A stretch of DNA of 64,000 nucleotides from an uncultured Eubacteriales bacterium (GCA_964400735.1 CAYNVQ010000006.1:46800-110799); one strand, 5' to 3'; positions 1,724-54,047 are shown, counted from the first letter of the stretch. Program-made: numbers and translations. Notes: a model not told the origin generated them from the sequence alone.

Positions 1724-3871
1724 ATGCTTGATAATCTTATAATCGCCGTCAAAAGGCAAAAAAAGCTGATCATCATTTTCCTGCTCACCATTTTTCTCCC
1801 TTCCATTGCGCTCAGTATTTTTGGAATAAGGGCCATAAGGAATGACAGATTCAGATTGGTTCAACAGCTGGAAGACGAGCACAAAAGGGCAGCCACCTTC
1901 TTGAAGAATCAGATTGACTCCCGGTTCGAGGATGTCGGAATCAAACTGCAGAATCTGGTACAGAATACAGCTTTCGGGCAAAAAAATTACGCCCTTATCA
2001 AAGAGGCACTCAACAATCAGTCTCAAAATGATCCGCTCATCGAACTCGTTTTTCTGGCCTATAAGAATGAGGAGCCGTTGTTTCCTCTTTTTCTGCCAAT
2101 TTCTCCAATTAGAGCGTCTCCAGTCTTATCTCCTCCGGGCAGCGCCCTGAGAGAGAGGCTGGAAAGGGCCCAGAGAATGGAATTCGGCCAGAAGAATTTC
2201 TCTGAAGCAGCGACCCTGTATGAGCAGATTCTCTCCCGCTCTGAAGACAAAGACATCCAGGCACAAATGCTCAACAATATGGCCCGATGTTACACGAAGT
2301 TGGAAAATTATGACAAGGCCATCCGCTGCTATTCACGAATCTGTGAGGAGTATCCTCAGTGTATGACCTCTTCTTCATTACCCTTGGACCTGATAGCCAA
2401 GATTCAGATTGTCAAATGCTACAGAAGCATGGGGGCTTACGATATCTTCTTAACATCCGCTCTAGATTTATACAGGAAGCTTCTCCAGAGGAAGTGGTGT
2501 CTGGACGCCGACCAATTCAATACCTATGCTTTAATGGTCGAAAAGGATCTTTCGGACCTTTTATCGATGGAAGAAAGAAAATCGGACAACGATGGCTACT
2601 ATCAAGAATTTGCGGAACTGAAAGAACTCCATCGCCAATTGGATGAGCAGTGGGAGGTGGTCAGAAATGTAAAAAACTCTATCCTACCCGAGCTCCAGGG
2701 AAGATTTACTCTGAATCCCGCTTATCCCTTCGCTCCTATCCGTCATTCAAAGACTATAGGCCAAAAAAATTACCTTGTTGTTGCCTCAGCTGTCCCTCAA
2801 AATGAAAATGAGGAGTTTATCGGCTTGCTCGGTGTCAAAATCGATGACCGGCATCTTCTCGACAGCGAAATTATCAGCATATTGGGTGATTTCCCCTTTT
2901 CACAAGAAGCGTCTTTATCCGTTTCCACTCTTTCAGGGAGAACTCTTTTAGAATATGGGAATCATTCTTATCATGATCCTAGCGCAACAACTTATTTCAA
3001 CGAAAGCTTCCCTCCCTGGAGAGTAGATTTTTTTCCGGCTGATAATGGAGGTTTAGGTGTCCTGAACCTGAGAAAAAGTTTCTATTTCTGGACTATTCTG
3101 ACTGTCCTGGTCCTCCTCACCTTTGGAGCTGTGCTCGTGGTCAGGACCGTCGCTCACGAGATGGAAGTCCTCAGGGTCAAGTCGGATTTTGTCTCCTCGG
3201 TTTCCCATGAGTTTCAAACTCCCATAACAGCCATTAAAGCTTCGATAGAGAGACTTCAGCAGGGAAAAGTCAGGACTCCTGAAAAAAGGGAGGAGTATTA
3301 TTCGATCATATCCAAAGATGCCGATAAATTGGGCAGCCTGGTGCGGAACATTCTGGATTATTCTAAAGTCGACGCTGGACGCAAACAGTATTTCTTCCAT
3401 GAAACAGATTTGGCTCAACTGGTCAAGGAAGAAATCATGAACTTTGAAAGAGACAAAATTTTCGCCAGGATTAAGATCGAAACCCAGATATCACCGGGTG
3501 TTCCAGTTATCGATGTAGACAAAGAAGCTTTTTCTTTAGCCTTCAATAATCTTTTGGAAAATGCTGTTAAATTTTCCCCTGGTCAAAAAAAGGTCTATGT
3601 GGAGGTCCGAGAGGAGGCAGAAAGTGTCAGGGTGGATGTCAGGGACAAAGGCTCGGGCATTACCTCCAGCGAAACGGATAAAATTTTCGATAAATTTTAT
3701 CAGGGAAAAAATGCAGCCCGGCAGTCCTTTAGAGGGACAGGTCTTGGATTGACATTGGTCAAGCATGTGATGGAAGCCCATGGGGGAAAGGTTCTAGTAG
3801 AAAGCGAAATTGGAAAGGGGAGCACATTTTCACTTATCTTTCCCCAAAAACATAGAGGGAGTAAGCCTTGA
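1724..3871 (+). CDS. Sensor histidine kinase, module 1: TM1, ~420-aa extracytoplasmic TPR-like sensor domain, TM2, HisKA, HATPase; no HAMP
   Basis: TM helices are LIIIFLLTIFLPSIALSIFGI and FYFWTILTVLVLLTFGAVLVV. The H-box SVSHEFQTPITAI follows TM2 directly. N, G1 and G2 boxes are present: [17 protein letters not shown] and GTGLGLTLV. Conserved FPPW and AExEFxQKN motifs are shared with the six paralogs in the window. Confidence 0.85.
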   Translation: MLDNLIIAVKRQKKLIIIFLLTIFLPSIALSIFGIRAIRNDRFRLVQQLEDEHKRAATFLKNQIDSRFEDVGIKLQNLVQNTAFGQKNYALIKEALNNQSQNDPLIELVFLAYKNEEPLFPLFLPISPIRASPVLSPPGSALRERLERAQRMEFGQKNFSEAATLYEQILSRSEDKDIQAQMLNNMARCYTKLENYDKAIRCYSRICEEYPQCMTSSSLPLDLIAKIQIVKCYRSMGAYDIFLTSALDLYRKLLQRKWCLDADQFNTYALMVEKDLSDLLSMEERKSDNDGYYQEFAELKELHRQLDEQWEVVRNVKNSILPELQGRFTLNPAYPFAPIRHSKTIGQKNYLVVASAVPQNENEEFIGLLGVKIDDRHLLDSEIISILGDFPFSQEASLSVSTLSGRTLLEYGNHSYHDPSATTYFNESFPPWRVDFFPADNGGLGVLNLRKSFYFWTILTVLVLLTFGAVLVVRTVAHEMEVLRVKSDFVSSVSHEFQTPITAIKASIERLQQGKVRTPEKREEYYSIISKDADKLGSLVRNILDYSKVDAGRKQYFFHETDLAQLVKEEIMNFERDKIFARIKIETQISPGVPVIDVDKEAFSLAFNNLLENAVKFSPGQKKVYVEVREEAESVRVDVRDKGSGITSSETDKIFDKFYQGKNAARQSFRGTGLGLTLVKHVMEAHGGKVLVESEIGKGSTFSLIFPQKHRGSKP

Positions 3872-4566
3872 TGAGAATAAGGGTGCTCATTGTAGAGGAT
3901 GATCAGGGTATCCTATTAAACCTCAAGGACGAATTCGAATCCTATGGGTGCACGGTTTTTTCAGCCGAAGATGGAAACGAGGGGCTGACCTTGGCAAGGG
4001 AAAAAAGGCCGGATCTGATCATATTGGACCTGATGCTTCCCGGCAAGGATGGCTATGAGGTGTGCCGAGAGTTGAGGAGCGAGGGCAGCAAGACGCCCAT
4101 CATCATGCTGACGGCCAAGACTCAAGAGATCGATAAGGTGCTGGGCTTGGAGCTGGGAGCCGACGACTATGTGACCAAGCCTTTCAGCCTCAGGGAGCTC
4201 ATGGCAAGGGTGAAAGCGGTGTTGAGAAGAACAGGAGAGCGGACAGAGGATCAAAAGGCCCTCGATACCTACAGCTTTGGCCGGATTGAGCTGGACTTTA
4301 AAAGATATGAGGCCAAAAAAAAGGGGAAAAAATTAAAGCTCACTCCTTTACAATTCCATATGCTAAGACTTCTCATTCAGAACAAGGGAGAAGTCCTTTC
4401 CAGAAATGAGCTGCTCGATGAAATCTGGGGAAAGGACAATGTTTGGATTTCGCACCGTACCATAGATAGCCATATGGCCAATATCCGAAGGAAGATAGAG
4501 GCCGATCCTGCCAACCCCAAACACATCCTCAGCATTAGAGGGGTGGGGTATAAGTTTGTGGATTGA
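3871..4566 (+). CDS. OmpR-family response regulator, module 1: receiver plus winged-helix
   Basis: Receiver motifs are present: LIVEDD, phospho-acceptor D in IILDLMLPGKDG, the T in LMLTA and the K in YVTKPF. The C-terminus carries a trans_reg_C domain, ...SIRGVGYKFVD. The ATG overlaps the HK1 stop as TGATG. The track start at 3868 is an upstream TTG. Confidence 0.9.
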   Translation: MRIRVLIVEDDQGILLNLKDEFESYGCTVFSAEDGNEGLTLAREKRPDLIILDLMLPGKDGYEVCRELRSEGSKTPIIMLTAKTQEIDKVLGLELGADDYVTKPFSLRELMARVKAVLRRTGERTEDQKALDTYSFGRIELDFKRYEAKKKGKKLKLTPLQFHMLRLLIQNKGEVLSRNELLDEIWGKDNVWISHRTIDSHMANIRRKIEADPANPKHILSIRGVGYKFVD

Positions 4567-4643: not shown

Positions 4644-6827
4644 GTGGGAGAAAGAAAGAGCTTAAATAGCATAAGACAGGTGAGAAAATTGGACATGTAT
4701 AAAAGATTCCTGCTCCCTTCTTTCGTATTATGCTTTAGCTTTCTCATTCTCACCACTTATTTAGCGGCACAGCAAACCGCAGGAGAGATGTTCCAGGAGG
4801 CGCTCTACTTGGAAGAGGCCGAAGGAGACCTGGAGCGGGCCATCGAGCTTTACCAGAAGATTTTGGAGCAGTTTGCAGGAGAAAGGGAGGTGGCTGTCAA
4901 GGCCCAACTCCACATCGGCCTCTGCTATGAAAAATTGGGCTTGAAGGAGGCTCAGGAAGCTTTCGAGAAGGTTATCGAAAATTTTCCGGATCAAGAAGAA
5001 GAGGTGAAGATCGCGCGGCAAAAATTGGCCCGTCTGGTGAAGGCGAAAGCCGTGATCGAGGATAAAAAAACAGAGCTGAGTATGCAGAAGGTATTCACTG
5101 GTATCAACAGGGATTTTGTCGGTACGCCATCTCCTGATGGGCGATACCTTTCCACGGTGGATTGGGAGACCGGAGACCTGGCTATCAAGGAGATCCCTTC
5201 CGGCAAACTGCGCCGCCTCACCCATAAGCACAACTGGGTAGAGTCGCAGGAGTATGCTCTCGTCTCCGTTTGGTCTCCTGATGGGAAAAAATTGGCCTAT
5301 TCATGGATGAATGAGGATCGCTTTTTTGAGCTTCGTACTATTGGCTTGGATGGCTCAGAGCCGCAAGTCCTTTATCGAAATAAAGAAAATTTTTATGTTC
5401 ATCCATTTGACTGGTCCCCAGATGGAAGATATGTCTTAGCAGGACTGGGAAAAGGCCAGAGGATCACTCAGATAACGACGATCTCAGTAAAGGACGGAGC
5501 AGTCAGGATTCTAAAAAAACACAAGGTTAATACCGGTTTAAAAGATGACATTTATGAGTCTGGATTTTACCTGCCCGATGGGAAGACCATTATCTTCGGT
5601 TTTGTCGCAGAAATACCAGGCTCTCGAGGAAGTGATATTGCGCTTCTTTCAGCCGAAGGTGGTGGTGAGCAAGTCATTCTTGTCGAGGACCCTGCACATG
5701 ACGTGCCGCTCGTTTGGGACCCTCATGGCGAAAGGCTTCTTTTCATGAGCGACCGGACAGGGAATATGGATCTATGGGCCCTGGAGATGAAACAAGGCAA
5801 ACCTCAGGGAAAGCCTTACCTCCTCAAAAAAGATATAGGAAGGATAACCGCTCTAGGATTCACGGATGATGAGGACCTGTATTATGTGCAGTACGCAGGT
5901 ATGAACGATGTTTACACGGCAACTCTAGACCCCATGACAAATTCTTTTTCAGCACCTCCACAGAGGGCCACGAAGCTGTTTATCGGAGCCAATAGGTCAC
6001 CTGATTTTTCTCCGGACGGGAAATCCCTGGCCTATATTTCTGAGAGATCATACGGACCCGGACGTTTCACAACGCCGGTCATATGTATTCAATCTTTGGG
6101 CTCTGGCGAAAAGCGCGAACTCGTTACGAAACTCGATCGCATATATTTTATCCGCTGGTCGGCTGATGGGAAAAATTTCTATTCTCATGGATTCGACGGA
6201 AAAGGACGGACAGGCCTTTTTTCCATCGACGGCAAAACAGGTGACCTAGATTTATTATTGGATTGTGGAGAAGAGGAGTACATTCCTGAGCTCGATGTGT
6301 TTCCAGATGGGAAAAGGATCGTGTACAAGATGTGGGAGCAAAAGAGGCAGGGAGATGGATATATCATGAGCATTAGGGTTCGAGATATCCAGAGTGGGAA
6401 AGAAGAAGAGATCTATCGCCACGAGAATGCCAGTCAGACCGATTGTGTGACCTTATCTTCGGATAGCCAATGGATAGCCTTCGATGACCGGGTTCGCTTC
6501 CCGACATTAAACGTCATTCCTGCCACAGGAGGAGAAGCTGAGGAGCTGTATCGAATGGAGTTTGGAGAGAGTATCCTTTCATTGGCTTGGAGGCCGGGGG
6601 AACAAGAAATATTTTTTGTTAAAGGAGCAGAACTTAATCAACTGTGGAGGGTAAATTTAGAGGATAAAGAACCGCAGAGGATGGACTTTTCGATGAGAAG
6701 TCTGGGTGATTTACGCTTCCATCCGGATGGGAGGCATATTGCCTTCCATGCAGGGTATGTAGAAGTCGAGGTCTGGGTGATGGAAAATTTGCTGCACTTG
6801 GAAAGAAAAGACAAAGTTTTTAGATAA
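4644..6827 (+). CDS. Secreted TPR-like plus PD40/TolB-like beta-propeller protein, module 1
   Basis: The probable true start is the ATG near 4695, giving MYKRFLLPSFVLCFSFLILTTYLAAQQ as signal peptide. The N-terminal helical domain carries the family motif AVKAQLHIGLCYEKLG. There are multiple PD40 repeats: SPDGRY, WSPDGKK, WSPDGRY, FSPDGKS, FPDGKR and HPDGRH. The family C-terminal motif is VWVMENLLH. Confidence 0.8.
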   Translation: MGERKSLNSIRQVRKLDMYKRFLLPSFVLCFSFLILTTYLAAQQTAGEMFQEALYLEEAEGDLERAIELYQKILEQFAGEREVAVKAQLHIGLCYEKLGLKEAQEAFEKVIENFPDQEEEVKIARQKLARLVKAKAVIEDKKTELSMQKVFTGINRDFVGTPSPDGRYLSTVDWETGDLAIKEIPSGKLRRLTHKHNWVESQEYALVSVWSPDGKKLAYSWMNEDRFFELRTIGLDGSEPQVLYRNKENFYVHPFDWSPDGRYVLAGLGKGQRITQITTISVKDGAVRILKKHKVNTGLKDDIYESGFYLPDGKTIIFGFVAEIPGSRGSDIALLSAEGGGEQVILVEDPAHDVPLVWDPHGERLLFMSDRTGNMDLWALEMKQGKPQGKPYLLKKDIGRITALGFTDDEDLYYVQYAGMNDVYTATLDPMTNSFSAPPQRATKLFIGANRSPDFSPDGKSLAYISERSYGPGRFTTPVICIQSLGSGEKRELVTKLDRIYFIRWSADGKNFYSHGFDGKGRTGLFSIDGKTGDLDLLLDCGEEEYIPELDVFPDGKRIVYKMWEQKRQGDGYIMSIRVRDIQSGKEEEIYRHENASQTDCVTLSSDSQWIAFDDRVRFPTLNVIPATGGEAEELYRMEFGESILSLAWRPGEQEIFFVKGAELNQLWRVNLEDKEPQRMDFSMRSLGDLRFHPDGRHIAFHAGYVEVEVWVMENLLHLERKDKVFR

Positions 6828-7059: not shown

Positions 7060-8058
7060 TTACTGAGTAACGGGATTTTTGATGAAGTCGATGTAGAAAT
7101 AGAAATCGCCTTTTGCTTCCATGGAATAGTACCATGTCGCTCTACCTTTATTGCGCTCACAGTACCGCTCTTGGACCTTAAGGTTAATGTATTCTGGAAG
7201 ACTAAGACTTGCAGGGAAAGTTCTGTTTAATAAATCATAATCAAGCACCCTTATTCTCCACACCCCGTCACTTCCTATTCCGTATTCTGCTTCATATAAT
7301 CCTTCGTTTAACCTCTCTATCGCAATATTCATAGGCTCACCTTTTTCCACCAGAGCTTCATAATTGATATTTCTGTAGAATTCAATATCATGATAGGCCG
7401 GGTTGGCTTCGCATTTATCCCGATAACGAGCTACCATTATAAAATAATCTCCGTTTCCTCCAGGAGCACAAGCACTTCCAAATCCATAAATTTCTCCAGG
7501 TATCATGCTTTCAATATCTTTGTCGGAGGTAATCCAAACATAAATGTAGAAAGACACATAGTCAGGGTGAGGGTGAGTGCTGTTCAAGAAATCGGCCATA
7601 CAACCAGGGTCGCAATCAAGACCTATACAATCTCCTCCTGCACATAAATCATCAGGGAATTGGCAGCAAGGCCTGCCCTCATCAGGATACGCTATATCAT
7701 CCCAATTACCAACGTTTACACCCTGAAAGCGTACATATTTAGATGGAGGGCTTCCGAGATTTTCGTTTTTAAGTACAAAACTAAAGTCGTTCTTTTCGAC
7801 TTTCACCTCGGTAGAAGAGCCATTTTCATACAAACCATCAGTACTTTCCATTCCATAAAGCATATTACCTGAATCTTCGATTGGAATTCGAACCGCCCAG
7901 GTGGCTTGTGGTTCACTCGGTTTATCGGGTTTCCCTGGATTTTCAGGTTTTTTCTGGATTTGGACCTGAGCCTGCATAAGGCTGATGCCGGCCAGAAACA
8001 CAACCATCACAAAGACACTTAAAATCCCCAAAAAACTTAGTTTTCGGACTTTTCTCAA
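7060..8058 (-). CDS. Hypothetical secreted cysteine-rich protein
   Basis: The N-terminus MRKVRKLSFLGILSVFVMVVFLAGISLMQAQ is a signal peptide, followed by a Pro/Lys-rich linker, KPENPGKPDKPSEP. A Cys cluster, CCQFPDDLCAGGDCIGLDCDPGC, is present. No family recognised. Confidence 0.5.
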   Translation of the reverse strand: MRKVRKLSFLGILSVFVMVVFLAGISLMQAQVQIQKKPENPGKPDKPSEPQATWAVRIPIEDSGNMLYGMESTDGLYENGSSTEVKVEKNDFSFVLKNENLGSPPSKYVRFQGVNVGNWDDIAYPDEGRPCCQFPDDLCAGGDCIGLDCDPGCMADFLNSTHPHPDYVSFYIYVWITSDKDIESMIPGEIYGFGSACAPGGNGDYFIMVARYRDKCEANPAYHDIEFYRNINYEALVEKGEPMNIAIERLNEGLYEAEYGIGSDGVWRIRVLDYDLLNRTFPASLSLPEYINLKVQERYCERNKGRATWYYSMEAKGDFYFYIDFIKNPVTQ

Positions 8059-11198: not shown

Positions 11199-11301
11199 TT
11201 TCCCTACCTTGCTGAGTCCTTTGTAAAGATAATTGTCGAAATGGGCATTGTCAAGGTTTCATGTCTTTTTATTTCCTTGCTCCCTATTTCTCCATGCTGC
11301 C

Positions 11302-11330
11302 TTGACAGAATCTTCACACTTCCTTAACGT
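11302..11330 (+). promoter_or_regulatory. Putative promoter of HK2 module: TTGACA-N17-TAACGT
   Basis: cTTGACAgaatcttcacacttcctTAACGTtaaat matches the HK1-upstream element. It shares the -35 hexamer TTGACA, the gaatc following it and the TAACGTT -10 region. It lies divergent from the TonB receptor gene. Confidence 0.45.
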
Positions 11331-11390
11331 TAAATCCTAACGAGTATGGTAAACTAGCAGTGGGAGAATCGCTTCATTTCGGGATCGGGC

Positions 11391-13529: not shown

Positions 13530-13536
13530 GGTCCGC

Positions 13537-14223
13537 ATGGCGAAGAAAATCTTGATCGTCGAAGACGATCCGGGAATATCTCTCGGGCTCAAGGATGAAT
13601 TCGAATCCGAAGGGTACGAGGTTTTTGCTGCGGAAGATGGAGAGAAAGGATTGGAAGCGGCCAAGACCCAAAAGCCAGACATCATCATCCTGGACATCAT
13701 GCTTCCTGTTCAGGATGGGTACGAAGTATGCAGAAGATTGAGGATGGAGGGAAACCGAACGCCTATTATCATGCTGACGGTCAAGGATAAGGAAATCGAC
13801 AAAATATTAGGGTTGGAGTTGGGAGCGGACGATTATGTCACCAAACCCTTTAGCCTCCGGGAACTTGTCGCCCGGGCAAAAGCCATCTTTCGGAGAACAG
13901 AGGCTCATGTTGAAGATTTGGATATGTATTCCTTCGGTGAAATCGAACTGGACTTTAAAAAATACGAAGCCATGAAAACGGGGAAAAAACTGGAGTTGAC
14001 TCCTCTCGAATTTCATTTGTTGAAGCTGATGATCCAACGAAAGGGGGAAGTTCTTACCAGGCACGATTTTTTGAATGGCATTTGGGGAAAGAACAACATA
14101 TCCGTGACCGATAGAACAGTGGACAGCCATATCGCTAATATCCGGAAGAAGCTTGAGGACGATCCCGCCCATCCCAGGCATATCGTCAGTGTCCGTGGCG
14201 TGGGGTATAAATTTGTGGATTAA
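13537..14223 (+). CDS. OmpR-family response regulator, module 2
   Basis: [30 protein letters not shown] and the C-terminus SVRGVGYKFVD are present. It starts 8 nt after the HK2 stop. Confidence 0.9.
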   Translation: MAKKILIVEDDPGISLGLKDEFESEGYEVFAAEDGEKGLEAAKTQKPDIIILDIMLPVQDGYEVCRRLRMEGNRTPIIMLTVKDKEIDKILGLELGADDYVTKPFSLRELVARAKAIFRRTEAHVEDLDMYSFGEIELDFKKYEAMKTGKKLELTPLEFHLLKLMIQRKGEVLTRHDFLNGIWGKNNISVTDRTVDSHIANIRKKLEDDPAHPRHIVSVRGVGYKFVD

Positions 14224-37087: not shown

Positions 37088-37090
37088 ACC

Positions 37091-42542: not shown

Positions 42543-43228
42543 AACGGATTCTGATCGTCGAAGATGATGTGGCGATCCTGCGGGGGCTCAAGGACAACCT
42601 CGAGTATGAATCCTACGAGGTGATGACAGCCACGGATGGAGAACAGGGGTACTGCCTGATCCAGGAGAAAAAACCCGACTTGATCATCTTGGATTTGATG
42701 CTTCCCAAGATGAGCGGATACGAACTCTGCCGGAAAGTCCGTAAGGATGGAATCACGACGCCTATTCTGATGCTGACGGCAAGAGGGGAGGAAGTGGACC
42801 GGGTGCTGGGATTGGATTTGGGTGCCGATGATTATGTCACCAAGCCTTTTTCCGTGCCTGAGTTGCTGGCCAGGATACGGGCTATCATCCGCCGGGTCCA
42901 TCAGGCTAAGACAGGCGATTTGCCCAGCGATTTGCGGTTTGGCGATGTCGTCATAGATTTCAAGTGTTTTGAAGCCCGAAAGGACGAAAAGGTTTTGGAC
43001 TTGTCCCGCAAGGAATACGGCGTGCTCCGGCTTCTGGCTGCACGGGCGGGTGAGGTGGTAACCCGCGATGAGCTGCTGGATGAAGTGTGGGGTTATGACC
43101 AGTATCCCACCACACGAACAGTGGACAACCACATCTCTTTGCTGCGCACAAAACTCGAGGATGACCCATCTAATCCACACCACCTGATTACCGTTCATGG
43201 AGTCGGCTACAAGCTGGTTCTCGATTGA
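42539..43228 (+). CDS. OmpR-family response regulator, module 6
   Basis: MKRILIVEDD is present, with an ATGA overlap to HK6. The C-terminus is TVHGVGYKLVLD. Its closest paralog is RR3. Confidence 0.9.
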   Translation: MKRILIVEDDVAILRGLKDNLEYESYEVMTATDGEQGYCLIQEKKPDLIILDLMLPKMSGYELCRKVRKDGITTPILMLTARGEEVDRVLGLDLGADDYVTKPFSVPELLARIRAIIRRVHQAKTGDLPSDLRFGDVVIDFKCFEARKDEKVLDLSRKEYGVLRLLAARAGEVVTRDELLDEVWGYDQYPTTRTVDNHISLLRTKLEDDPSNPHHLITVHGVGYKLVLD

Positions 43229-43273: not shown

Positions 43274-43290
43274 ATGACATTTTCGTGACA
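43274..43290 (+). promoter_or_regulatory. Second copy of ATGACATTTTCGTGACA plus further GACATTTTG/TTTCGTGA repeats upstream of PD40 gene 43415
   Basis: The 17-mer is an exact match to 40485..40501. Additional TTTCGTGA (43303..43310) and GGACATTTTGCG (43330..43341) lie in the same 185-bp intergenic region. Confidence 0.35.
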
Positions 43291-47706: not shown

Positions 47707-47814
47707 AATAGAAGAAATAGAACCGTCCCTTCTAGGGAGAACCCGAGAAAGCGCTGAGTTTTATTGTTGTTTCTGGAAAGCTTCGAAGTATTTCATCGTC
47801 ACCGGATAAGAGTT

Positions 47815-48138
47815 TTATGTTGAGATGTTTGGCAATGCGACATACTCGCAGTCATAAGCTGAGCAGTTGCTGGCCGCTGCCAAATCCAAGACCAGATCGG
47901 AAGGGGGAAGGATTTCTCGATCTTCCAAGGTTTTCAAGGCCGATTTCATAACCAGTTTGGCTTCTTCGAGTTTCAAGATACGGCGGCGGATATAGCCAGT
48001 CATGACGTTTCGAAACTCGCTCTGCCAAACAGGAGGAGCCACCCAGTAAGGATCTTTTTTTAGCGCCTGAAGAGCCAGTGCTGTCCTTTCGCTGTGGACG
48101 TGGATATGAATGATGATGTTCGTATCCACGACGATCAT
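47815..48138 (-). CDS. vapC: PIN-domain toxin (VapC-like); C-terminal region disrupted by an apparent -1 frameshift
   Basis: The N-terminus MIVVDTNIII carries the conserved first Asp. Later acidic residues are present (..SEFRN.., ..SAYDCEYVAL). After ...YVAL the -1 frame continues as AKHLNIKLLSGDDEILRSFPE..., a canonical PIN C-terminus with the fourth conserved Asp, down to a stop near 47732. The annotated frame terminates 7 codons after the shift, as PNIST*. Confidence 0.7.
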   Translation of the reverse strand: MIVVDTNIIIHIHVHSERTALALQALKKDPYWVAPPVWQSEFRNVMTGYIRRRILKLEEAKLVMKSALKTLEDREILPPSDLVLDLAAASNCSAYDCEYVALPNIST

Positions 48139-48377
48139 TTTCGGCCTTCATTCTTCCACAATTCGAGCTCTTCTTCCTGCAGACGATACTGGGCTGTCAG
48201 CTCGCGGATCTTCCGTGTCCGCTCCAATGTGGAGTCGACATCGATGGGTGGTGTTGTGAGTGCTCGTTCGATGATAGCGATAACTTCCTGATTGATGCTT
48301 CTGCGGTTGGCTTTGGCGCGTCGTTTCAGCCTCTCATAGACTTCTAAAGGAATATTTTTTATTGTCAATGTTGCCAT
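48135..48377 (-). CDS. vapB: Ribbon-helix-helix (Arc/FitA/VapB-like) antitoxin
   Basis: It is 80 aa. The N-terminus MATLTIKNIPLEVYERLKRRAKANRRSINQEVIAIIERAL follows the RHH beta-strand plus two-helix pattern. It overlaps the toxin start by 4 nt. Confidence 0.75.
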   Translation of the reverse strand: MATLTIKNIPLEVYERLKRRAKANRRSINQEVIAIIERALTTPPIDVDSTLERTRKIRELTAQYRLQEEELELWKNEGRK

Positions 48378-48549
48378 TTTAGAATCTTTAAGGAGTTATT
48401 ATGAAATCATTATAATTCCAAAATGGAATCATGCCAATTCAGAATTTTTATTTTTTTTATGTTGGAATTGTCTGTATTATCTAAAGGCGATTTTATTGAC
48501 ATCTACCCACTCCTTATATAGTTTATAGGCGCTGAGGTGAAAACGGCAA

Positions 48550-48828
48550 ATGGCAGAAGATGATCCAGTGAAGATTCCGATCGACGGGGTGCTTGATCTG
48601 CATGCGTTCAGCCCGAAAGATGTGAAGGACCTGGTGCCGGAATATTTGAGGGAATGCCGCAACCAGGGAATCTATCATGTCCGAATCATCCACGGAAAGG
48701 GGATAGGAACGCTCCAAAGGATCGTTCACAGCATTCTCGAAAAACATCCCCATGTCATAAGCTTCAAAACCGCCCATTACGGCGGAGGCGGCTGGGGAGC
48801 TACAGAAGTCGAACTGATTTCCAAATAA
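48550..48828 (+). CDS. Smr-domain small protein
   Basis: The Smr motifs are LDLHAFSPKDV...VRIIHGKGIGTLQRIVHSIL. Confidence 0.65.
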   Translation: MAEDDPVKIPIDGVLDLHAFSPKDVKDLVPEYLRECRNQGIYHVRIIHGKGIGTLQRIVHSILEKHPHVISFKTAHYGGGGWGATEVELISK

Positions 48829-48942
48829 TTCCTCCCTTGTTATCTTCACACAATCTTCACACAAACGTTGCGGAAGCGTCGTTCAAGCAATGAATTTTTC
48901 TGGTATTTTTCCTCCTGAAATGTAAAATGAAAGGAGGGAATC

Positions 48943-49032
48943 ATGAAATCACGAATTATTCTTTTTAGTGTGTTGGCCCTTTCGATTAACATCCTCGGCG
49001 TACGGGGTGTCGGCTATAAATTTTGCGAATAG
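48943..49032 (+). other. 29-aa ORF whose 3' third is a response-regulator C-terminal remnant (..RGVGYKF..) behind a strong RBS; probable decayed module
   Basis: gaaaggagggaatcATG encodes MKSRIILFSVLALSINILGVRGVGYKFCE*. The last 14 codons parallel the 3' ends of the window's OmpR-type RR genes; compare HILSIRGVGYKFVD*. Just upstream, 48842..48869 holds ATCTTCACACaATCTTCACACaAACGTT, a duplicated fragment of the HK2 promoter spacer and -10 region. Confidence 0.4.
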
Positions 49033-49055
49033 GAAAAGCTGGACGCTACCAATGC

Positions 49056-51146
49056 CTATTTTTTGCCTTCCGGCAGAAAGTTTTCCATGACCCAGTATTC
49101 CGGGTAGGGCATGGAAAATCCTTCAGATGAAAATACGATCTCGTTGCCATTTGGGTGAACTTGGGGTTCGTCCGGATCGAGCATGGATAAACCAACCTCG
49201 AGCAATTCTCCTCCGTTGAGCGGTATGCGGCAAAACGCTTCTTGTCCCAATACATCTGATTTTTTGAAAAAGAGAATATATTGGCTGTCCGGAGTCCAAG
49301 TTAAGGCAATTGGAGCGCCCCCTCGTTGGTTGAACCGGCAGAGCACGCGCGGCTCTCCTCCTTCCGCAGGAATGATCTTCAGCTCCCGATCCAATTCACG
49401 CCCAATAAAGGCCAGCCATTTTCCATCTGGCGAAAGGGAAATATTCGCATAAGAGTGGGATGTCTGGTGTATTTTTTTCCTTTTTTCCGTTTCAAAATCG
49501 TAACGGCATATGAGGTCATTAGATTTGCCCTTTTCCCCTTGAATGTAAAAGAAAAATTTTCCGTCTGGTGTCCATTCACTGAAACGGTATTCTTCTTTTT
49601 CGGACGGCTTCGGCAACAGGATAGCTTTTATATCTTCTGTCTGAACATCGATCCTGAAGATTCCAGTCAATCTGGATTCGGTGATTCCCGATAAAAGAAT
49701 AGCTCGACCATCCGGAGACCACCGTGGATAGAAGGCTTTCACGTTAAGAGAGAATGTTTTCTCTTTTCCTGATCCCAGAGAGCGAATATGCAGGGATGAG
49801 CTGTAATGTCCAAAAGAACCACGAATGTAAGCCAGGTTTTTTCCATCAGGCGAATAGGCTGGGAAATCGTTGCTCCCCTCAGATGGGAGGTCCATCTTTT
49901 CTGGTGGATTTTGAATCTCTCCGGTCTCTGGATCGAGTGAAGAGGTGTAGATATCTTCCATCTCCTTTGAAGACATAAAATAAAAGGAGCCATCTTTACT
50001 GAAACCCAATGGAGTATTTACCGCTCCTCTTTTTACCAATAGGGGATCCCCTTGTGTTTTTCCATCGCTGATTGAAACTATCCAGGCATCGTCGGATCCC
50101 AATCGGCTGCTTTGAAAAAGAATCCATCGCCCATCAGGTGACCATCCGAGCATTTTTTCATTTGCAGGGTGCTCGATCAGAGGAATCTCTCTGCTTTCCT
50201 CCATAGCATACAGGTAAATATCGCTTTCAGGGCTTTTCTCCTCTTGAGGTTTTTCATAAGCGATATATCGGCCGTCTGGGGATATGTTTGTATTTCTTCC
50301 CAATTTAATTGGAATGGCTTGTGTTGTTTTATCCTTCAGAGACAACACCGCCCTTTGGTTTTCAAGCCCGTCTTTTGATAAAGCGATCAGAATTTGTTCA
50401 CCGTCAGGAAACCAGTCCAGCGGCCAGGCATACGCGATTTCTTCATTCTTATAGACCGTATAAGGTTTTTTATCTTCAATTCCTATGATTCTAATGTCTG
50501 AAAAAGACTTTCCGTGCCACCAATCATAGACAATCTTTTTTCCATCCGGGGACCAGGTGGAATAAAGGGGATAGCCAATTTCATTCTTTTGGTCGGTAAG
50601 AAGCTGTTTCTTTCCGGTGGTGAGATCTCGGATGGCCAGATTGTTCGTTTTCCAATCCACGATCGAGACATATCGTCCATCAGGGGAGACAGCACCCAGC
50701 CACCCGTCATAGAGGGTATCCGGTCCGGATACCAACTGCCTGACTTTTAATCCAGTGTCCCCTCTCTCGACGACTGCTCGAGCTCTAGCAAGAACAGAGA
50801 GTTTTTTGTTGGCCATTTTGACCGCTTCTGCCTGATCGGGATAGTTATCCACGACCTTCTGGAAAGCATTCTGGGCCTGTCTCAAACCCAGTTTTTCGTA
50901 ACATATCCCTACGAAATATTGTGACTTGGCGGCGTATTCTCTTTCGTTCGGATATTTGGCGATGATCTCCTCGAAGAGCTCGATGGCTGCGTTGAGATCT
51001 CCTTTGGTTTCCATGGTGTACTTGGCCTTTTCGAAAAGCACCTTGTGCTCTGAGGAGTTCTGGAACCCAAAGGCTGTGAAGATAAAGGCGGCCGCAAATA
51101 TGGCAAATAATGGAATGATTTGAATTAAAGTTTTTTTCCGGCTCAT
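49056..51146 (-). CDS. Secreted TPR-like plus PD40 beta-propeller protein, module 7, reverse strand
   Basis: The preferred start is the ATG at 51146..51144 behind GAGGAGG, giving MSRKKTLIQIIPLFAIFAAAFIFTAFG as signal peptide. The track start at 51233 is upstream in frame. The TPR-like N-domain includes AKSQYFVGICYEKLG. WSPDGK, SPDGR and HPNGN repeats are present. The C-terminus is YWVMENFLPEGKK. Confidence 0.8.
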   Translation of the reverse strand: MSRKKTLIQIIPLFAIFAAAFIFTAFGFQNSSEHKVLFEKAKYTMETKGDLNAAIELFEEIIAKYPNEREYAAKSQYFVGICYEKLGLRQAQNAFQKVVDNYPDQAEAVKMANKKLSVLARARAVVERGDTGLKVRQLVSGPDTLYDGWLGAVSPDGRYVSIVDWKTNNLAIRDLTTGKKQLLTDQKNEIGYPLYSTWSPDGKKIVYDWWHGKSFSDIRIIGIEDKKPYTVYKNEEIAYAWPLDWFPDGEQILIALSKDGLENQRAVLSLKDKTTQAIPIKLGRNTNISPDGRYIAYEKPQEEKSPESDIYLYAMEESREIPLIEHPANEKMLGWSPDGRWILFQSSRLGSDDAWIVSISDGKTQGDPLLVKRGAVNTPLGFSKDGSFYFMSSKEMEDIYTSSLDPETGEIQNPPEKMDLPSEGSNDFPAYSPDGKNLAYIRGSFGHYSSSLHIRSLGSGKEKTFSLNVKAFYPRWSPDGRAILLSGITESRLTGIFRIDVQTEDIKAILLPKPSEKEEYRFSEWTPDGKFFFYIQGEKGKSNDLICRYDFETEKRKKIHQTSHSYANISLSPDGKWLAFIGRELDRELKIIPAEGGEPRVLCRFNQRGGAPIALTWTPDSQYILFFKKSDVLGQEAFCRIPLNGGELLEVGLSMLDPDEPQVHPNGNEIVFSSEGFSMPYPEYWVMENFLPEGKK

Positions 51147-51242
51147 GGTGAAACCTCCTCGTTTTGATCTTTCACCATTCAATTTAACTCTTTTCCTCCC
51201 GCCTGCTGTCAAACAAACATAAACAAATGTCAAAGAATGTCA

Positions 51243-51929
51243 TCAGTCCATGAATCTGTAGCCTTCTCCGTAAACTGAAAGGATATGCCGGGGACGGGAG
51301 GGGTTCTCTTCGATTTTTTTTCTCAATTTCAAAATATGATTGTCTATGGTGCGGGTGGTGGGGAATTTCTCGTATCCCCAGATTTTATCCAGTAAGTCAT
51401 CCCTTTTGACCACTTCTCCCGGATAGGAAAGAAAATATCTGAGGATTTCCGCTTCCAGCGAAGTCAAATCCCACTCCTTTCCTGCACGCCTTATCTTGAA
51501 ATGGTTGAAGTCGATCTCCACATCTCCGAGAGTGTAGATATCTGGTATGGATCTGGTGCTTCTCTGTTCCCGTCTCAGGTGGGCCTTTATCCGTGCCAGA
51601 AGCTCGCGGATGCTGAAGGGCTTGGTGATGTAATCGTCGGCGCCGATCTCCAGCCCTACCACTTTATCGATCTCTTCTCCTTTGGCCGTGAGCATGATGA
51701 TGGGAGTGCCGATCTTTTTTTCCCTGAGCTGGCGGCAGACCTCCAGCCCGTCCTTTTTGGGGAGCATGATATCCAGGATGATCAATGCCGGTCTTTCTTT
51801 AAAGACTCGCTCGAGCCCCTGCTCTCCATCGGATGCCCAGGCTACATGATACCCCTCATCCTCCAAATTAAGCCTCAGTCCTTTGACCAGGTCCTCTTCA
51901 TCTTCGATGATCAATATCTTTTCTTTCAT
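51243..51929 (-). CDS. OmpR-family response regulator, module 7
   Basis: [13 protein letters not shown] is present. The phospho-acceptor lies in [19 protein letters not shown] is present. The C-terminus is [11 protein letters not shown]. Confidence 0.9.
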
Positions 51930-51938
51930 GGTGTATCC

Positions 51939-54047
51939 TTATCTGCCCTCAAGGGGCAGAATGATAGAAAAAGTGGTTCCTTCTCCCGGCTCGCTCTCCA
52001 CATCCACCCGCCCTCCATGGGCCTCGGTGATGTGCTTGACCAGGGTTAATCCCAGGCCGCTTCCCTTGGCCTCGGGCGAGAGCTTGTTTTTCGACCGGTA
52101 AAACCTGGTGAAGATCTTTTTGATTTCCTTGGGAGTTATACCGATTCCCTTATCTGATACTTGAAGTACGGCTCTCCCATTCTCTTTAAACAGCCTTACC
52201 GCAACTTCCTTTTTATCCGGAGAGAACTTCACCGCATTGTTCAAAAGGTTGATTAGAACGCTGGAGATGGCTTCCCGGTCGAAAAGCATTTCAGGAAGAT
52301 TGGAATCTATTCGGTCGTGAACTGAAAATCCTTTCTTCTCCAGATGGTAACGGTAGGATTCGAGAGTCTCTTTAACCGCCTCAGCCAGGTCGCCTATTTG
52401 AAAATCGAATTCTTTTCGTCCCATGTCGATCCTGGAGAAGTCAAGGACATTGTTGATCAGGTGGGAAAGGCGTTCGCTCTCTTTGGTGATGATCTCGTAA
52501 CATTCAGCTTTTTGGAGGTCTGAGAGGTTTTTTTTCCGCTGGAGGGTTTCTCCGTAGAGGCGGATGAGGGTAAGAGGCGTTTTCAATTCATGGGAAACGT
52601 TGTGGACAAACTCGGTTTTTTGGCGGGTGGCTTCCTTTTCCCGGGTGATATCCCGGGCGATGAGAATGGCCCCCAGAGCCAGGAGCGTCACGATCACGAA
52701 AAATAGAATGCCGTAAGCAAAGACATCTCGTTGGGCTGTTTGCTGGAGGTTTTCCAATCCCGGTTGGGCCACAGCGAGCTGCCAAGAAATAGGAAAATGC
52801 CGAAAAGAAAAGGTCAGAGAAGAAGCCTCAGAGACGTTATCTCTATTTGAAGATCGATCACTCTCATCTGTGATCCTGACCATAAGGCCTGTTTCTTTTT
52901 CGATGTTATTCAGAATTTGAGGGATGAGATTTTCCTTCAATAATCGAAGGTCCCAACAGAATCCTCCATGGCCGCCTCTATCCAGCTGAGAGAGTGCTCT
53001 ATAAGATATCATATAAGATTGATCTAAGTGGTGAGCGAGCAGGCGCTTAGGCTGGTCTTTTTCACTGACTGGAGTCAAGCTGACATTTTCTTTTATCCTG
53101 GGAATGACTTTTGTTTTTAAAAACTCGGCAAACAGCAGGGATTCCAGATAAGGAGATGCCCGGCTTTGGAGCGACCGGAAAGTTGCCTGAAGTTCGGGGA
53201 GATCATTTTCCCTTAGCCTATCTTCGATATCGGCCTCGATTTCTTCGATGAAAAGATCATAGGCCGGAATATCGATCAGCCATTTGCCGTTTTTGATATT
53301 TTCATATAGATGGAGTATGGCTTCGAGGCTTTTTGTCTCCTCTCCCATTTGCTGGCTGATTTCATAAAGCTGGAGAGAGGCCGTTATTCCGAAGGGATGC
53401 CCGGCTTTGTTTTTAAGATGACTGTATTCCCTGAGGAGTTGTTCGTAGACCTCCACAGCCCTATCATATTTTTTCATGGAAGCTAAGCATCTTCCTATTG
53501 CCTCTAAAGCTGTGGCCTTGTGCTGACTGGAAGGCGCCTTTTGATAGTATTCCTGATAGAGCTCAACAGCCTGGGTATAGTTTTTATCAGAGAACTCGAA
53601 GTTTTCGGCCTTCTGATATGATTCGCCGAGTGGTTGCTGAGACGAATCCATTTCTTCAAGAAATTCAGGTTTCTCATCTATTCCCGTCCGGGGAAAAAGG
53701 ATGAGGAAGTCCTCATCCAACAAAAAATATTTCCCCTTTTCTGAGCCGAATGGAATTTCTGTTTTCAAAGGAACGAATCTGCCTTTGTTTTCTTTAATCA
53801 AACTTGCGAAATTTTCTAAGCTCAATGTCTCACGTTCGTTTTCAAGAAGAGAGTTCTCGAGTGATTTAAGAGCGGTATTTCCTGATACCCAGAGATTTGA
53901 TTCCACAATCTGTTGAACCGTTTCTCTCCGCTGCGAAAAGGTCTTCATGCTCAGATAGGCGATGAGAAGGGAGGGAAAAATGATGGCGAGCAGAAAAATA
54001 ACAACGATTTTTTTTCCGCCGAAAGGACCAAAAAAGGACCTGTTCAT
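51939..54047 (-). CDS. Sensor histidine kinase, module 7, same two-TM architecture
   Basis: TM1 is [19 protein letters not shown]. The sensor domain carries [20 protein letters not shown] and [15 protein letters not shown]2 is [22 protein letters not shown]. The H-box is [21 protein letters not shown] is present. Confidence 0.85.

Follow-up and report, generated by a model that had tools for sequence, protein, structure and literature searches.

The window (the whole 64,000-nucleotide stretch of DNA that we analyzed) comes from a genome of the Candidatus Aminicenantes type. It contains seven trios of genes, each encoding a histidine kinase (HK), a response regulator (RR), and a PD40 protein (PD), at the positions that a sequence-only reading of the window had given. 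Module 6 has two PD genes, PD6a and PD6b, and a ninth TPR-PD40 gene lies downstream of an ECF sigma and anti-sigma pair; this ECF-associated unit is kept together in locus L069 with 78 to 80% identity. The three-gene signaling unit is lineage restricted and is present in the window as seven paralogous copies. The coordinates of the genes and of the candidate cis-elements are given in Table 1.

Table 1. Genes, PD protein segments, and cis-elements in the window. Heads comprise the signal peptide and TPR1; hinges comprise the conserved TPR2 and cap.
Feature	Position	Strand	Description
HK1	1724-3871	+	Module 1 sensor histidine kinase; HK clade 7, with HK2
RR1	3868-4566	+	OmpR-type response regulator; Response_reg and Trans_reg_C
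PD1	4644-6827	+	Secreted TPR-head and double-propeller protein; Pfam PD40 and TPR_6; head 4644-4892; hinge 4893-5048; body 5079-6827
Module 2 cis-element	11289-11325	+	Upstream of HK2; TCTCCATGCTGCCTTGAC / GAATCTTCACACTTCCTT
HK2	11391-13529	+	HK clade 7, with HK1
RR2	13537-14223	+	
Module 2 cis-element, copy	14289-14309	+	RR2-PD2 spacer
PD2	14366-16510	+	Head 14366-14569; hinge 14570-14725; body 14756-16510
Module 3 cis-element	16625-16642	+	Upstream of HK3; TTACAATTCCATGACAAC
HK3	16672-18648	+	HK clade 1, with HK6; shorter sensor domain, ~365 aa
RR3	18645-19349	+	
Module 3 cis-element, copy	19383-19400	+	Before PD3; TTACATGGCCATGACAAC
PD3	19387-21546	+	Head 19387-19644; hinge 19645-19809; body 19840-21546; true start codon probably near 19453
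HK4	21632-23770	+	HK clade 9, with HK5
RR4	23763-24455	+	
PD4	24560-26734	+	Head 24560-24766; hinge 24767-24931; body 24962-26734
HK5	30243-32429	+	HK clade 9, with HK4
RR5	32416-33102	+	
PD5	33211-35313	+	Head 33211-33417; hinge 33418-33573; body 33604-35313
Related unit	36497-40445	+	ECF sigma 36497-37087; zf-HC2 anti-sigma 37091-38074; TPR-PD40 protein 38151-40445 (Pfam)
Module 6 cis-element, copy 1	40485-40501	+	ATGACATTTTCGTGACA, 11-bp direct repeat of TGACATTTT; 71 nt upstream of HK6
HK6	40572-42542	+	HK clade 1, with HK3
RR6	42539-43228	+	
Module 6 cis-element, copy 2	43274-43290	+	Identical 17-mer; RR6-PD6a spacer
PD6a	43415-45580	+	Head 43415-43600; hinge 43601-43756; body 43787-45580
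PD6b	45520-47706	+	Second PD gene of module 6; head 45520-45762; hinge 45763-45927; body 45958-47706
PD7	49056-51233	-	Head 50934-51233; hinge 50778-50933; body 49056-50747
RR7	51243-51929	-	
HK7	51939-54047	-	HK clade 2; no partner in the window; 9 relatives in other genomes

HK1, HK3, HK4, and HK7 matched Pfam HisKA (E values of 1e-16 to 1e-24) and HATPase_c (1e-26 to 1e-29), with every score exceeding its gathering threshold, and HK2, HK5, and HK6 aligned to these four over their full lengths with 40 to 42% identity. RR1 scored 111.6 bits for Response_reg and 85.3 bits for Trans_reg_C; RR2 to RR7 aligned along their full lengths at 48 to 69% identity. Judged from these matches, the HK and RR of a trio form a classical two-component system, with a HisKA-type kinase and an OmpR-family regulator. 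By hydropathy, every HK has two hydrophobic segments around 365 to 420 residues that are predicted to be an extracytoplasmic sensor domain. In HK1, two predicted transmembrane segments enclose a periplasmic domain of ~420 aa with Pfam TPR matches at residues 150 to 212, and the structure model of this domain (pLDDT, 84.7) shows a TPR array within a PDC-like scaffold.

The PD protein is Sec exported and consists of a short CpoB/YbgF-like TPR head and a tricorn/TolB-like double β-propeller, with no catalytic domain. The model of PD1 (pLDDT, 86.7) has helices at residues 46 to 139 followed by two propellers at 146 to 714, and its top Foldseek match in the PDB was the tricorn structure 1k32_A (E = 2e-20). 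No peptidase domain was matched by Pfam on the PD proteins, and the PD1 model ends with the second propeller. The PD proteins have a conserved C-terminal motif, WVMENFLP. A PD gene was found within 500 bp downstream of 69 of the 75 HK-RR pairs of the family that had enough downstream sequence.

Within the window, the HKs and RRs fall into the pairs (1,2), (3,6), and (4,5). HK identity was 40 to 42% inside these pairs and 23 to 29% across them; the corresponding values for the RRs were 65 to 69% and 48 to 55% (HK1 and HK2, 42%; RR1 and RR2, 69%). Each pair had 99 to 100% bootstrap support for both the HKs and the RRs in trees that are neighbor-joining (NJ) on p-distances, not likelihood trees. 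Thus sequence identity and trees both place the HK and RR pairing far beyond chance. The sequence-only reading had assigned the PD40 proteins to the same pairs. The N-terminal motifs that it quoted are all present in the window sequence, but among the PD40 proteins the pairing is confined to the signal peptide and first TPR hairpin (TPR1; PD1 residues 43 to 83, ~41 aligned residues) and is lost in the body. TPR1 identity was 59% for PD1-PD2, 56% for PD4-PD5, 52 and 50% for PD3 with PD6a and PD6b, and 88% for PD6a-PD6b, versus 18 to 49% for all other pairs. The second TPR hairpin (TPR2) and cap helix (PD1 residues 84 to 135) were 40 to 71% identical in every combination, without pair structure. 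The propeller body (PD1 residues 146 to 715; ~580 residues and ~80% of the protein) was 21 to 40% identical throughout and carried no pairing signal. Despite the TPR1 similarity of PD1 and PD2, their bodies are of different types (21% identity), and the PD2 body clusters with the ECF-associated TPR-PD40 protein with 100% bootstrap support. PD6a and PD6b, on one contig, have bodies that are only 35% identical, and the best-matching heads for PD6b all came from modules of the HK6/HK3 clade. The sequence-only reading had extrapolated from N-terminal motifs to the entire PD40 protein.

The same pattern was found when 64 complete trios were compared across genomes of the Candidatus Aminicenantes type, most of which are metagenome-assembled genomes (MAGs). 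Mantel correlations were 0.94 for HK-RR, 0.73 for HK-head, 0.30 for head-body, and 0.14 for HK-body, and HK sensor and HK kinase distances were correlated with an r of 0.92. Cluster agreement (ARI) was 0.90 for HK/RR and 0.017 for HK/body. The NJ trees shared 32 of 61 splits for HK/RR, 28 of 61 for HK/head, and 5 of 61 for HK/body. The claim that the module was duplicated and kept together as a unit can therefore be retained for the HK, the RR, and the first ~80 PD residues but not for the body. The congruence of component trees that had been proposed as the test of that claim was not found for the body, whose grouping does not follow that of the neighboring HK and RR. The excess of within-clade over between-clade identity was 0.29 for TPR1 (0.66 within and 0.37 between clades) and 0.31 for the HK DHp region, versus 0.05 for TPR2 and 0.02 for the propellers. 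All 50 HK pairs with at least 60% identity had RRs at least 70% identical, and 49 of them had heads at least 60% identical, but only 10 had bodies at least 50% identical. Conversely, only 11 of the 30 body pairs with at least 60% identity had HKs at least 45% identical. In these comparisons, only the signal peptide and TPR1 of the accessory protein share the phylogeny of the HK and RR.

Direct comparisons of modules showed how the bodies have moved. Bodies that are 87 to 94% identical were found behind unrelated kinases (25 to 27% identical), and kinases that are 78 to 80% identical were accompanied by bodies only 22 to 36% identical. For example, loci L031.1 and L068.1 have bodies that are 94% identical and HKs that are 27% identical, whereas module 2 and L014.1 are 80% identical in the HK and 72% in the head but 22% in the body, with the change point at PD1 residue 101. 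The PD3 body is 73% identical to that of L025.2, an HK4-type module of another genome whose HK is 24% identical; module 4 itself matches L025.2 at 78% (HK), 90% (RR), and 83% (head) but only 36% in the body. Likewise, the PD5 body is 87% identical to that of an HK3-type module, L077.1, with an HK that is 25% and a TPR that is 44% identical. These exchanges are visible as mosaics in the DNA. That of L025 first matches RR4 and the PD4 head of the window (87%), switches to the PD3 body, which it matches up to precisely the stop codon (79%; window positions 19638 to 21548), and continues with the gene that follows module 4 (88.5%); its match to PD4 stops at window position 24912, within the hinge. 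That of L077 matches RR3 and the PD3 head (81%) and then the PD5 body (86%; window positions 33529 to 35310). In the mosaics the flanks on both sides remain syntenic.

The change points were sharp and step-like, with likelihood ratio statistics up to 155, and their medians were PD1 residue 129 for pairs with the same HK and residue 83 for pairs with the same body. In all five of the modules with two PD genes, the second had the head type of its own module (73 to 91% identity) and an unrelated body (28 to 44%). The DNA alignments put the 5' crossover in TPR2; this hairpin and the cap helix (PD1 residues ~84 to 135) are conserved in every paralog and serve as the zone of 5' crossover. The 3' edge of the exchanged segment is the gene end, at the stop codon and beside the WVMENFLP motif. 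The propeller bodies have been exchanged repeatedly among modules, while the HK, RR, signal peptide, and TPR1 were inherited together. Homologous recombination or gene conversion brought about the exchange, over the times in which species and genera diverged. Because paralogous PD genes in this genome have no long identical tracts (the longest exact match is 26 nt; a 61-nt match between PD6a and PD6b is their ORF overlap), exchange is not demonstrably ongoing here. Programmed cassette variation (by a shufflon, pilE/pilS-type gene conversion, or a diversity-generating retroelement) was considered and rejected: the paralogous PD genes lack long identical repeats, no recombinase or reverse transcriptase was found among the Pfam-scanned window ORFs (those of <150 aa were checked at positions 47600 to 49100), and there were no headless body copies among the window ORFs.

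Three of the seven window modules (2, 3, and 6) have a significant duplicated cis-element, one copy before the HK gene and one before the PD gene. The duplicates matched at 16, 15, and 17 of 18 positions in modules 2, 3, and 6, respectively, each of which was reached by 0 of 100 shuffles. The exact 17-mer of module 6 occurs only twice in the window, and its k-mer is enriched upstream of HK clade 1 genes; ACTTCCTT is specific to HK clade 7. In general, the upstream-HK and RR-PD spacers had longer common words within clades than between them (P = 3e-15). Part of the cis-element may be a plain -35 box.

The account that we favor, with moderate confidence, is that an HK/RR/TPR1 unit is coinherited, that the body is an exchangeable cassette, and that TPR1 is an address tag. 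The duplicated unit consists of the HK, RR, signal peptide, and TPR1 and, in some modules, a module-specific DNA element before the HK and PD genes. TPR1 would commit a propeller protein to the HK/RR channel of its module, whether by docking on the periplasmic domain of the cognate HK or via a promoter controlled by the cognate RR, and the propeller body would be the payload that binds ligand. At a minimum, each channel probably controls the operon that encodes it, and it may be a private, insulated loop. Private loops would make the transfer of bodies between channels cheap, which would explain why bodies reassort freely while the HK, RR, and tag stay locked. Nevertheless, TPR1 may be linked to its module for a simpler reason, that it lies upstream of the only stretch with enough DNA homology for crossover. 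On that view the operon would simply encode the PD protein as one of its regulated products, with a binding or scaffold role in the periplasm and no sensory contact with the kinase, which we regard as doubtful but a real possibility. Several results agree with it: crossovers fall where the paralogs are most alike in nucleotide sequence (identity of 0.62 to 0.65 overall and 0.43 to 0.49 at third codon positions; baseline, ~0.30), and the PD genes of modules 2, 3, and 6 have an RR-type direct repeat in front of them. In addition, TPR1 and the HK sensor did not covary in rate beyond what common module ancestry accounts for; within clades TPR1 divergence followed all HK and RR segments about equally (r of 0.61 to 0.75), and its partial correlations given the RR were ≤0.29. 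However, the clade pattern of TPR1 resembles that of the DHp specificity region of the HK, second PD genes retain the head of their own module although swappable bodies lie on either side, and the HK sensor, which lies in the compartment of the PD protein, is itself modeled with a TPR array of the peptide-binding type. None of these three points is decisive.

Two other explanations fare worse. The sequence-only reading held that the three proteins, the entire PD40 protein included, had codiverged as specificity-matched partners. The bootstrap support for the HK and RR pairs and the like pairing of the N-terminal PD motifs are as it would predict, but ~80% of the PD protein has no such signal in the window or in the 64 trios, and nearly identical bodies lie behind unrelated kinases. 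We consider this explanation improbable for whole proteins; at most the short TPR1 tag may be specificity matched. That no exchange took place, the incongruence of the bodies being due to fast evolution with saturated distances or to chimeric metagenome assemblies, we judge to be highly improbable. It is true that between-clade body identities are compressed at 33 to 40% and that most loci are MAG contigs. However, saturation cannot yield bodies that are 73 to 94% identical beside HKs that are 24 to 30% identical, and the change points are step-like. Many independent MAG pairs break in the same zone, the DNA identity of paralogs in the hinge (~62 to 65%) is too low for assembly collapse, the flanks are syntenic on both sides, and PD6a and PD6b show the contrast between head and body on the single window contig.

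In the literature searched we found no description of a tag with an exchangeable body, and we know of no such two-part design or cassette exchange in the ExoR, LuxP-LuxQ, or TorT-TorS systems. ExoR is a periplasmic repeat-protein partner of a sensor kinase, acting with ExoS/ChvI, and LuxP-LuxQ and TorT-TorS use binding proteins as cosensors. By analogy, the secreted PD protein shares a compartment with the HK sensor and could modulate the HK, its α-helical repeat being a putative interaction surface; unlike ExoR, the PD head matches TPR_6 and CpoB-like models, not Sel1. The BceAB transporter reportedly accompanies BceRS in such a way that the whole accessory protein is congruent with the HK. 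The trios are similar in that, in many modules of a paralogous family, the product of an adjacent third gene goes with one particular HK/RR pair. In the trios, however, congruence is confined to ~41 residues, and a soluble propeller protein of the periplasm takes the place of the ABC transporter.

The PD proteins also recall Tol-Pal components, as the head weakly matches the tol_pal_ybgF TPR model and the body matches propeller_TolB; TolB chains were the only propeller proteins among four PDB sequence matches. Identification of the PD proteins as TolB or CpoB (YbgF) was rejected: their scores are far below the curated equivalog cutoffs (76.7 to 114 bits versus 343 for TIGR02800, TolB; 20.6 to 56.6 bits versus 90.1 for TIGR02795, YbgF), and tolQ-tolR-tolA-pal were absent among the Pfam-scanned window ORFs, the neighbors being HK and RR genes. 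Unlike TolB and CpoB, the PD proteins have two propellers instead of one, fused to the head, occur in multiple copies, and are linked to two-component systems, not to tolQRA-pal. With tricorn protease, the best structural match, they share an N-terminal β6/β7 propeller pair, and PD homologs carry Pfam Tricorn_N and Tricorn_2nd, but they lack the PDZ and catalytic serine protease domains; the TM-scores are low (0.27), since the two domains are oriented differently relative to each other. In Bacteroides, hybrid two-component systems (e.g., BT4663) have periplasmic double-propeller glycan sensors with Reg_prop and Y_Y_Y domains in the kinase polypeptide. A periplasmic tandem β-propeller may similarly be the input device of a two-component pathway here, but the propellers are on a separate protein, and there was no Pfam match to Reg_prop or Y_Y_Y in the window trios.

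Domain shuffling has been reported as a hallmark of lineage-specific HK expansions (Alm, Huang & Arkin 2006, PMC1630713). As in those expansions, the paralogs described here have expanded within a lineage, with the kinase core and regulator matched and the input reassorted. Unlike in those expansions, the HK's own sensor is unshuffled, and shuffling affects another polypeptide, the secreted third protein, whose body is exchanged at a defined hinge with a short tag left behind.

The window contains seven three-gene sets (modules 1 to 7), six on the + strand and one on the − strand, each encoding a histidine kinase (HK), an OmpR-type response regulator (RR) of 228 to 234 aa, and a secreted TPR-PD40 protein (PD); in module 6 two PD genes, PD6a and PD6b, lie in tandem. 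The HKs (656 to 728 aa) have Pfam HisKA and HATPase_c domains and two hydrophobic segments that bracket a periplasmic domain of 365 to 420 residues. The PD proteins (700 to 728 aa) carry a short TPR region and PD40/TolB-like repeats behind a signal peptide. A ninth TPR-PD40 gene lies downstream of an ECF sigma and anti-sigma pair. The names on homologues include Candidatus Aminicenantes and Acidobacteriota, and the taxonomic placement is based on such names. ORF starts are longest-ORF calls; three PD genes probably begin at internal Met codons, because N-terminal extensions precede their signal peptides, and PD6b probably starts at the ATG of MRKAEIL near 45577.

In the predicted model of PD1 (mean pLDDT, 86.7), two beta-propellers follow a set of TPR helices. 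The top match among solved structures was the tricorn protease propeller pair (1k32), in agreement with the Tricorn_N and Tricorn_2nd Pfam families annotated on PD homologues; no catalytic domain was found in PD1 with Pfam. With NCBIfam the N-terminal part resembles the CpoB/YbgF TPR and the propellers resemble TolB, both weakly and far under the curated cut-offs. We call the signal peptide plus TPR1 the head, TPR2 plus the cap helix the hinge, and the double propeller the body. The model of the HK1 periplasmic domain (pLDDT, 84.7) has a long N-terminal helix, a TPR array of ∼140 residues that resembles peptide-binding TPR domains (e.g., those of CHIP and MamA), a second long helix, and a PDC-like sheet. 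When 8000 word-sharing candidates were scored, 146 of them hit this sensor domain at E ≤ 1e-5, nearly all of Aminicenantes type.

Coordinates of PD1 segments (residues), mosaic alignments, and neighbouring features (nt of the window unless a locus is named)
Feature	Position	Matching position	Identity or basis
PD1 signal helix	N-terminal part		predicted structure
PD1 TPR1	helices 46-60 and 63-76		predicted structure
PD1 TPR2	helices 81-98 and 102-113		predicted structure
PD1 cap helix	118-139		predicted structure
PD1 linker, low confidence	136-141		predicted structure
PD1 two beta-propellers	146-714		predicted structure
Probable internal starts of PD1, PD3, PD7	near 4692, 19453, 51149		
Overlap of PD6b longest ORF with PD6a end (61 nt)	45520-45580		
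RR4 and PD4 head	23723-24912	L025 query 5-1200	87% (nt)
PD3, TPR2 start exactly to stop codon	19638-21548	L025 query 1048-2954	79%
Gene downstream of module 4	27053-27522	L025 query 3532-4001	88.5%
HK3 3' end, RR3, PD3 head	18533-19838	L077 3-1313	81%
PD5 body through stop codon	33529-35310	L077 1240-3023	86%
Intergenic stretch upstream of HK5 (53 nt)	29991-30043	L025 11957-12009	85%
Signal-peptide protein, no Pfam hit	7060-8058 (−)		
CarboxypepD_reg and outer-membrane beta-barrel protein	8394-11198 (−)		
ECF sigma, zf-HC2 anti-sigma, TPR-PD40 protein	36497-40445	L069 1010-4937	78-80%
Ninth TPR-PD40 gene	38151-40445		
VapBC-type PIN-domain toxin with FitA-like ribbon-helix-helix antitoxin, plus small Smr-domain protein	47815-48377 (−), 48550-48828 (+)		
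Ser/Thr protein kinase, then DUF4953 Met-zincin	54342-57482 and 58721-61165	L046 12638-19220; L069 18760-22008	
763-aa ORF, no Pfam hit	61686-63977 (−)		
Double-length PD relatives (P0050, P0058, P0059, P0065)	L031 9642-13517; L024 239-4015; L053 9983-13822		

A sequence-only reading of the window had claimed that HK, RR, and PD40 protein all fall into the paralog pairs (1,2), (3,6), and (4,5), and the N-terminal motifs it gave were all found in the sequence. The pairs are clear for the HKs (40 to 42% identity within pairs, 23 to 29% between) and the RRs (65 to 69% within, 48 to 55% between), with bootstrap values of 99 to 100% in neighbor-joining (NJ) trees on corrected p-distances. Every module has orthologues in other genomes, at 55 to 83% HK identity, and therefore the duplications behind these pairs are old. 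Module 7, which had been set apart, indeed has no partner in the window; RR7 joins the 3/6 group with 92% bootstrap, and the branch position of HK7 was not settled in the window NJ tree. For the PD proteins the pairing holds at the N-terminus but not for the whole protein. In TPR1 (residues 43 to 83) identity was 59% for PD1-PD2, 56% for PD4-PD5, and 52 and 50% for PD3 with PD6a and PD6b, versus 18 to 49% for other combinations; PD6a and PD6b were 88% identical. TPR2 plus cap (84 to 135) was 40 to 71% identical in all combinations, with no pair structure, and the body (146 to 715) was 21 to 40% identical throughout, including 21% for PD1-PD2 and 35% for PD6a-PD6b. The PD2 body clusters with the ECF-associated protein (100% bootstrap). 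Thus, the conclusion drawn from the motifs needs correction: when a short N-terminal motif co-diverges, the whole protein must not be taken to do so.

A pattern scan of species-representative genomes gave 77 loci, mostly on MAG contigs, and from these and the window we took 64 complete, nonidentical HK-RR-PD trios. The three genes are conserved as a unit: a PD gene lay within 500 bp after HK-RR in 69 of the 75 family pairs with enough downstream sequence, although such adjacency statistics are partly biased because the loci were found through a PD motif. Across the 64 trios the Mantel correlation was 0.94 for HK versus RR, 0.92 for HK sensor versus HK kinase core, 0.73 for HK versus PD head, 0.30 for head versus body, and 0.14 for HK versus body. 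Cluster agreement (ARI) was 0.90 for HK/RR and 0.017 for HK/body. Out of 61 NJ splits, HK shared 32 with RR, 28 with the head, and 5 with the body; label permutation left essentially none in common. The kinases form at least nine clades, four of them represented in the window. Within-clade minus between-clade identity was +0.29 for TPR1, +0.31 for the HK DHp domain, and +0.22 for the RR receiver domain, versus +0.05 for TPR2 plus cap and +0.02 for each propeller. The HK, the RR, the signal peptide, and TPR1 are inherited as a unit, which in some modules also takes in operator elements.

The double-propeller body is a cassette that is swapped at the conserved hinge, and this is exchange beyond mere fast evolution. 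Among loci of related genomes (numbered L0xx, with the trio after the point), bodies were 94% identical between L031.1 and L068.1 where the HKs were 27% identical, and likewise 87 and 25% for module 5 and L077.1, 73 and 24% for module 3 and L025.2, and 79 and 30% for L004.1 and L007.1. Conversely, module 2 and L014.1 share HK (80%), RR (82%), and head (72%) with a 22% body; the corresponding values are 78, 90, 83, and 36% for module 4 and L025.2, and 77, 92, 86, and 39% for module 3 and L025.1. When HKs were ≥60% identical (50 pairs), the RRs were ≥70% identical in all 50 and the heads ≥60% in 49, with bodies ≥50% in 10; when bodies were ≥60% identical (30 pairs), only 11 had HKs at ≥45%. The PD identity profiles are step functions. 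Maximum-likelihood change points had a median at PD1 residue 129 (IQR, 118 to 130) for same-HK pairs and at residue 83 for same-body pairs, and these medians flank the conserved TPR2-plus-cap segment.

Neither saturation nor misassembly can account for the mosaic pattern. In L025, synteny with module 4 extends on both flanks and the body alone is of another type, so deletion within a tandem array by a single crossover is ruled out as the sole mechanism: the PD3-type body of L025.2 has module-4 flanks on both sides. In L007, a PD1-type body retains its downstream neighbour (a homologue of the signal-peptide protein at 7060-8058) behind HK and RR genes of the module-5 type. Therefore, double-crossover and single-crossover products both seem to occur. 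Searches of the window PD genes and ORFs turned up neither long identical tracts nor silent cassettes nor a recombinase gene; we therefore rejected a programmed variation system and read the exchange as homologous recombination or gene conversion on an evolutionary scale. The hinge is the peak of nucleotide identity among the window PD paralogs (0.62 to 0.65 overall, and 0.43 to 0.49 at third codon positions versus ∼0.30 elsewhere), and the gene 3' ends (the last ∼40 to 50 nt, encoding WVMENFLP) are 82 to 87% identical between paralogs. Both plausibly serve as homology arms. Some relatives of ∼1250 to 1290 aa, about twice the usual length, resemble two bodies fused behind one head and would be a further recombination product of tandem PD genes.

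A cis-regulatory element is possibly a fourth co-diverging part. In module 6 an exact 17-mer, ATGACATTTTCGTGACA, occurs upstream of HK6 (40485-40501) and again in the RR6-PD6a spacer (43274-43290), with no further copy in the window. It is an 11-bp direct repeat, and direct repeats of this type are expected for OmpR/PhoB-type regulators. Duplicates matched at 16 of 18 positions in module 2 (11289-11325 and 14289-14309) and 15 of 18 in module 3 (16625-16642 and 19383-19400), values that 0 of 100 shuffles reached; in modules 1, 4, 5, and 7 a duplicated element was not above shuffles. Across the 64 trios, words shared between the region upstream of the HK and the RR-PD spacer were longer within clades than between them (P = 3e-15), and the fraction sharing a word of ≥10 nt was 0.20 within versus 0.06 between. 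This pattern fits a circuit in which each regulator would drive its own operon plus the PD gene. A scan for sigma-70 promoters and terminators from 11000 to 27000 gave fewer hits than shuffled sequence and was uninformative on operon structure. The intergenic stretch upstream of HK5 recurs at a nonsyntenic site in L025, between the module-4 PD gene and the molybdopterin oxidoreductase gene; it carries AATCGCAAC and TTAAC words typical of HK4/HK5 clade spacers.

The evolutionary pattern, a locked unit and a moving body, is solid. What the locked TPR1 does is a separate question, and three observations suggest that it does more than ride along. Five modules have two PD genes, and in every one the second head is of the module's own type (73 to 91% identical to the first) on a body unrelated to the first (28 to 44%), and this head is kept though swappable bodies flank both sides. 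TPR1 is conserved inside each clade but has diverged from clade to clade, as expected for a specificity determinant. In the predicted model, the HK TPR array is exposed in the same compartment as the PD head. In the main rival reading, which may well hold, the PD protein is nothing but cargo whose tag is only linked to HK and RR. Within clades, TPR1 divergence tracked all HK and RR segments alike (r = 0.61 to 0.75), the sensor domain showed no specific coupling in rate covariation with TPR1, and TPR1-HK partial correlations given RR were weak; therefore, co-inheritance alone could suffice. A head-only query for heads on other body types returned only 23 short proteins; 2 of these were inspected, and both were pieces of PD genes broken by frameshifts in noisy assemblies.

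We tentatively propose, while thinking it rather doubtful, that each PD protein is a periplasmic co-receptor built of two parts, in which the ∼40-residue TPR1 tag picks the kinase, the hinge permits recombination, and the tricorn-like double propeller sets what is sensed, so that Aminicenantes re-wire the inputs to insulated two-component channels by plug-and-play exchange. Apart from this reading, in the mechanism that we consider most likely, each module would be a private, insulated signalling channel, the body its ligand-binding payload or antenna, and the TPR1 tag, the channel promoter, or both would commit a body to a channel. If a channel mainly governs its own operon, shifting bodies between channels would cost little, which would explain their free re-assortment.

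Other genes accompany the modules. In the ECF unit a sigma/anti-sigma pair stands in place of the two-component system; its head is only 21 to 38% identical to the module heads, and the unit is kept full-length in L069 with no body swap. The signal-peptide protein at 7060-8058 has homologues adjoining PD1-type bodies in five other genomes (L001, L002, L003, L004, and L007), and the beta-barrel protein has an adjacent homologue in L001 only; both may work with the PD1-type body. The toxin-antitoxin and Smr-domain genes lie between PD6b and PD7. The Ser/Thr protein kinase carries a zinc ribbon, a single TM segment, and an extended TPR region and has 53% identity to its counterparts in L046 and L069; the Met-zincin has 73% identity to that of L046. 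In related genomes, both genes are syntenic with the module array. The 763-aa ORF has an odd composition (G+C, 0.53; AT skew, 0.18) and may be spurious, opposite a real + strand gene. PD-family loci, several with HK-RR, also occur in MAGs labelled Bacteroidales, Ignavibacteriales, Phycisphaerales, Calditrichia, Desulfatiglandales, and Gemmataceae (L032, L033, L036, L051 to L053, L056, L064, L067, L070, and L073); L033 and L051 have the order PD-HK-RR. Mislabelled bins may explain this, or the family may truly extend outside Aminicenantes.

The standard model for pathway duplication and insulation is that of paralogous two-component systems. With its dozens of tandem modules, this family is an unusually clean natural case in which to study both: HK, RR, and a 41-residue tag are locked, and a 580-residue input or payload domain is free to move at a defined hinge. 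Should the tag determine docking, specificity for a kinase would fit into a very small element that can be transferred, and sensor re-wiring would have a testable route. If it does not dock, the family still shows clearly how recombination re-assorts operon cargo among insulated channels. If the co-receptor reading is true, it would add a design principle that has not been described in bacterial signalling, and it would supply a scaffold on which orthogonal sensors could be engineered directly.

To our knowledge, signalling in this uncultured phylum is unstudied, and literature searches found no description of the HK-RR-PD trio. Accessory proteins are known that co-evolve with two-component systems (BceAB-BceRS); some kinases have repeat proteins as periplasmic partners (ExoR), and Bacteroides hybrid kinases carry fused propeller sensors. 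Lineage-specific expansions of kinases are known to involve domain shuffling (PMC1630713). Unlike these, the trios have a separate secreted tricorn/TolB-like double-propeller protein, a clade-specific tag of ∼41 residues, a universal hinge, and bodies that are exchanged again and again, although the sensor domain of the kinase itself remains congruent. The difference from known systems lies in the combination of these features.
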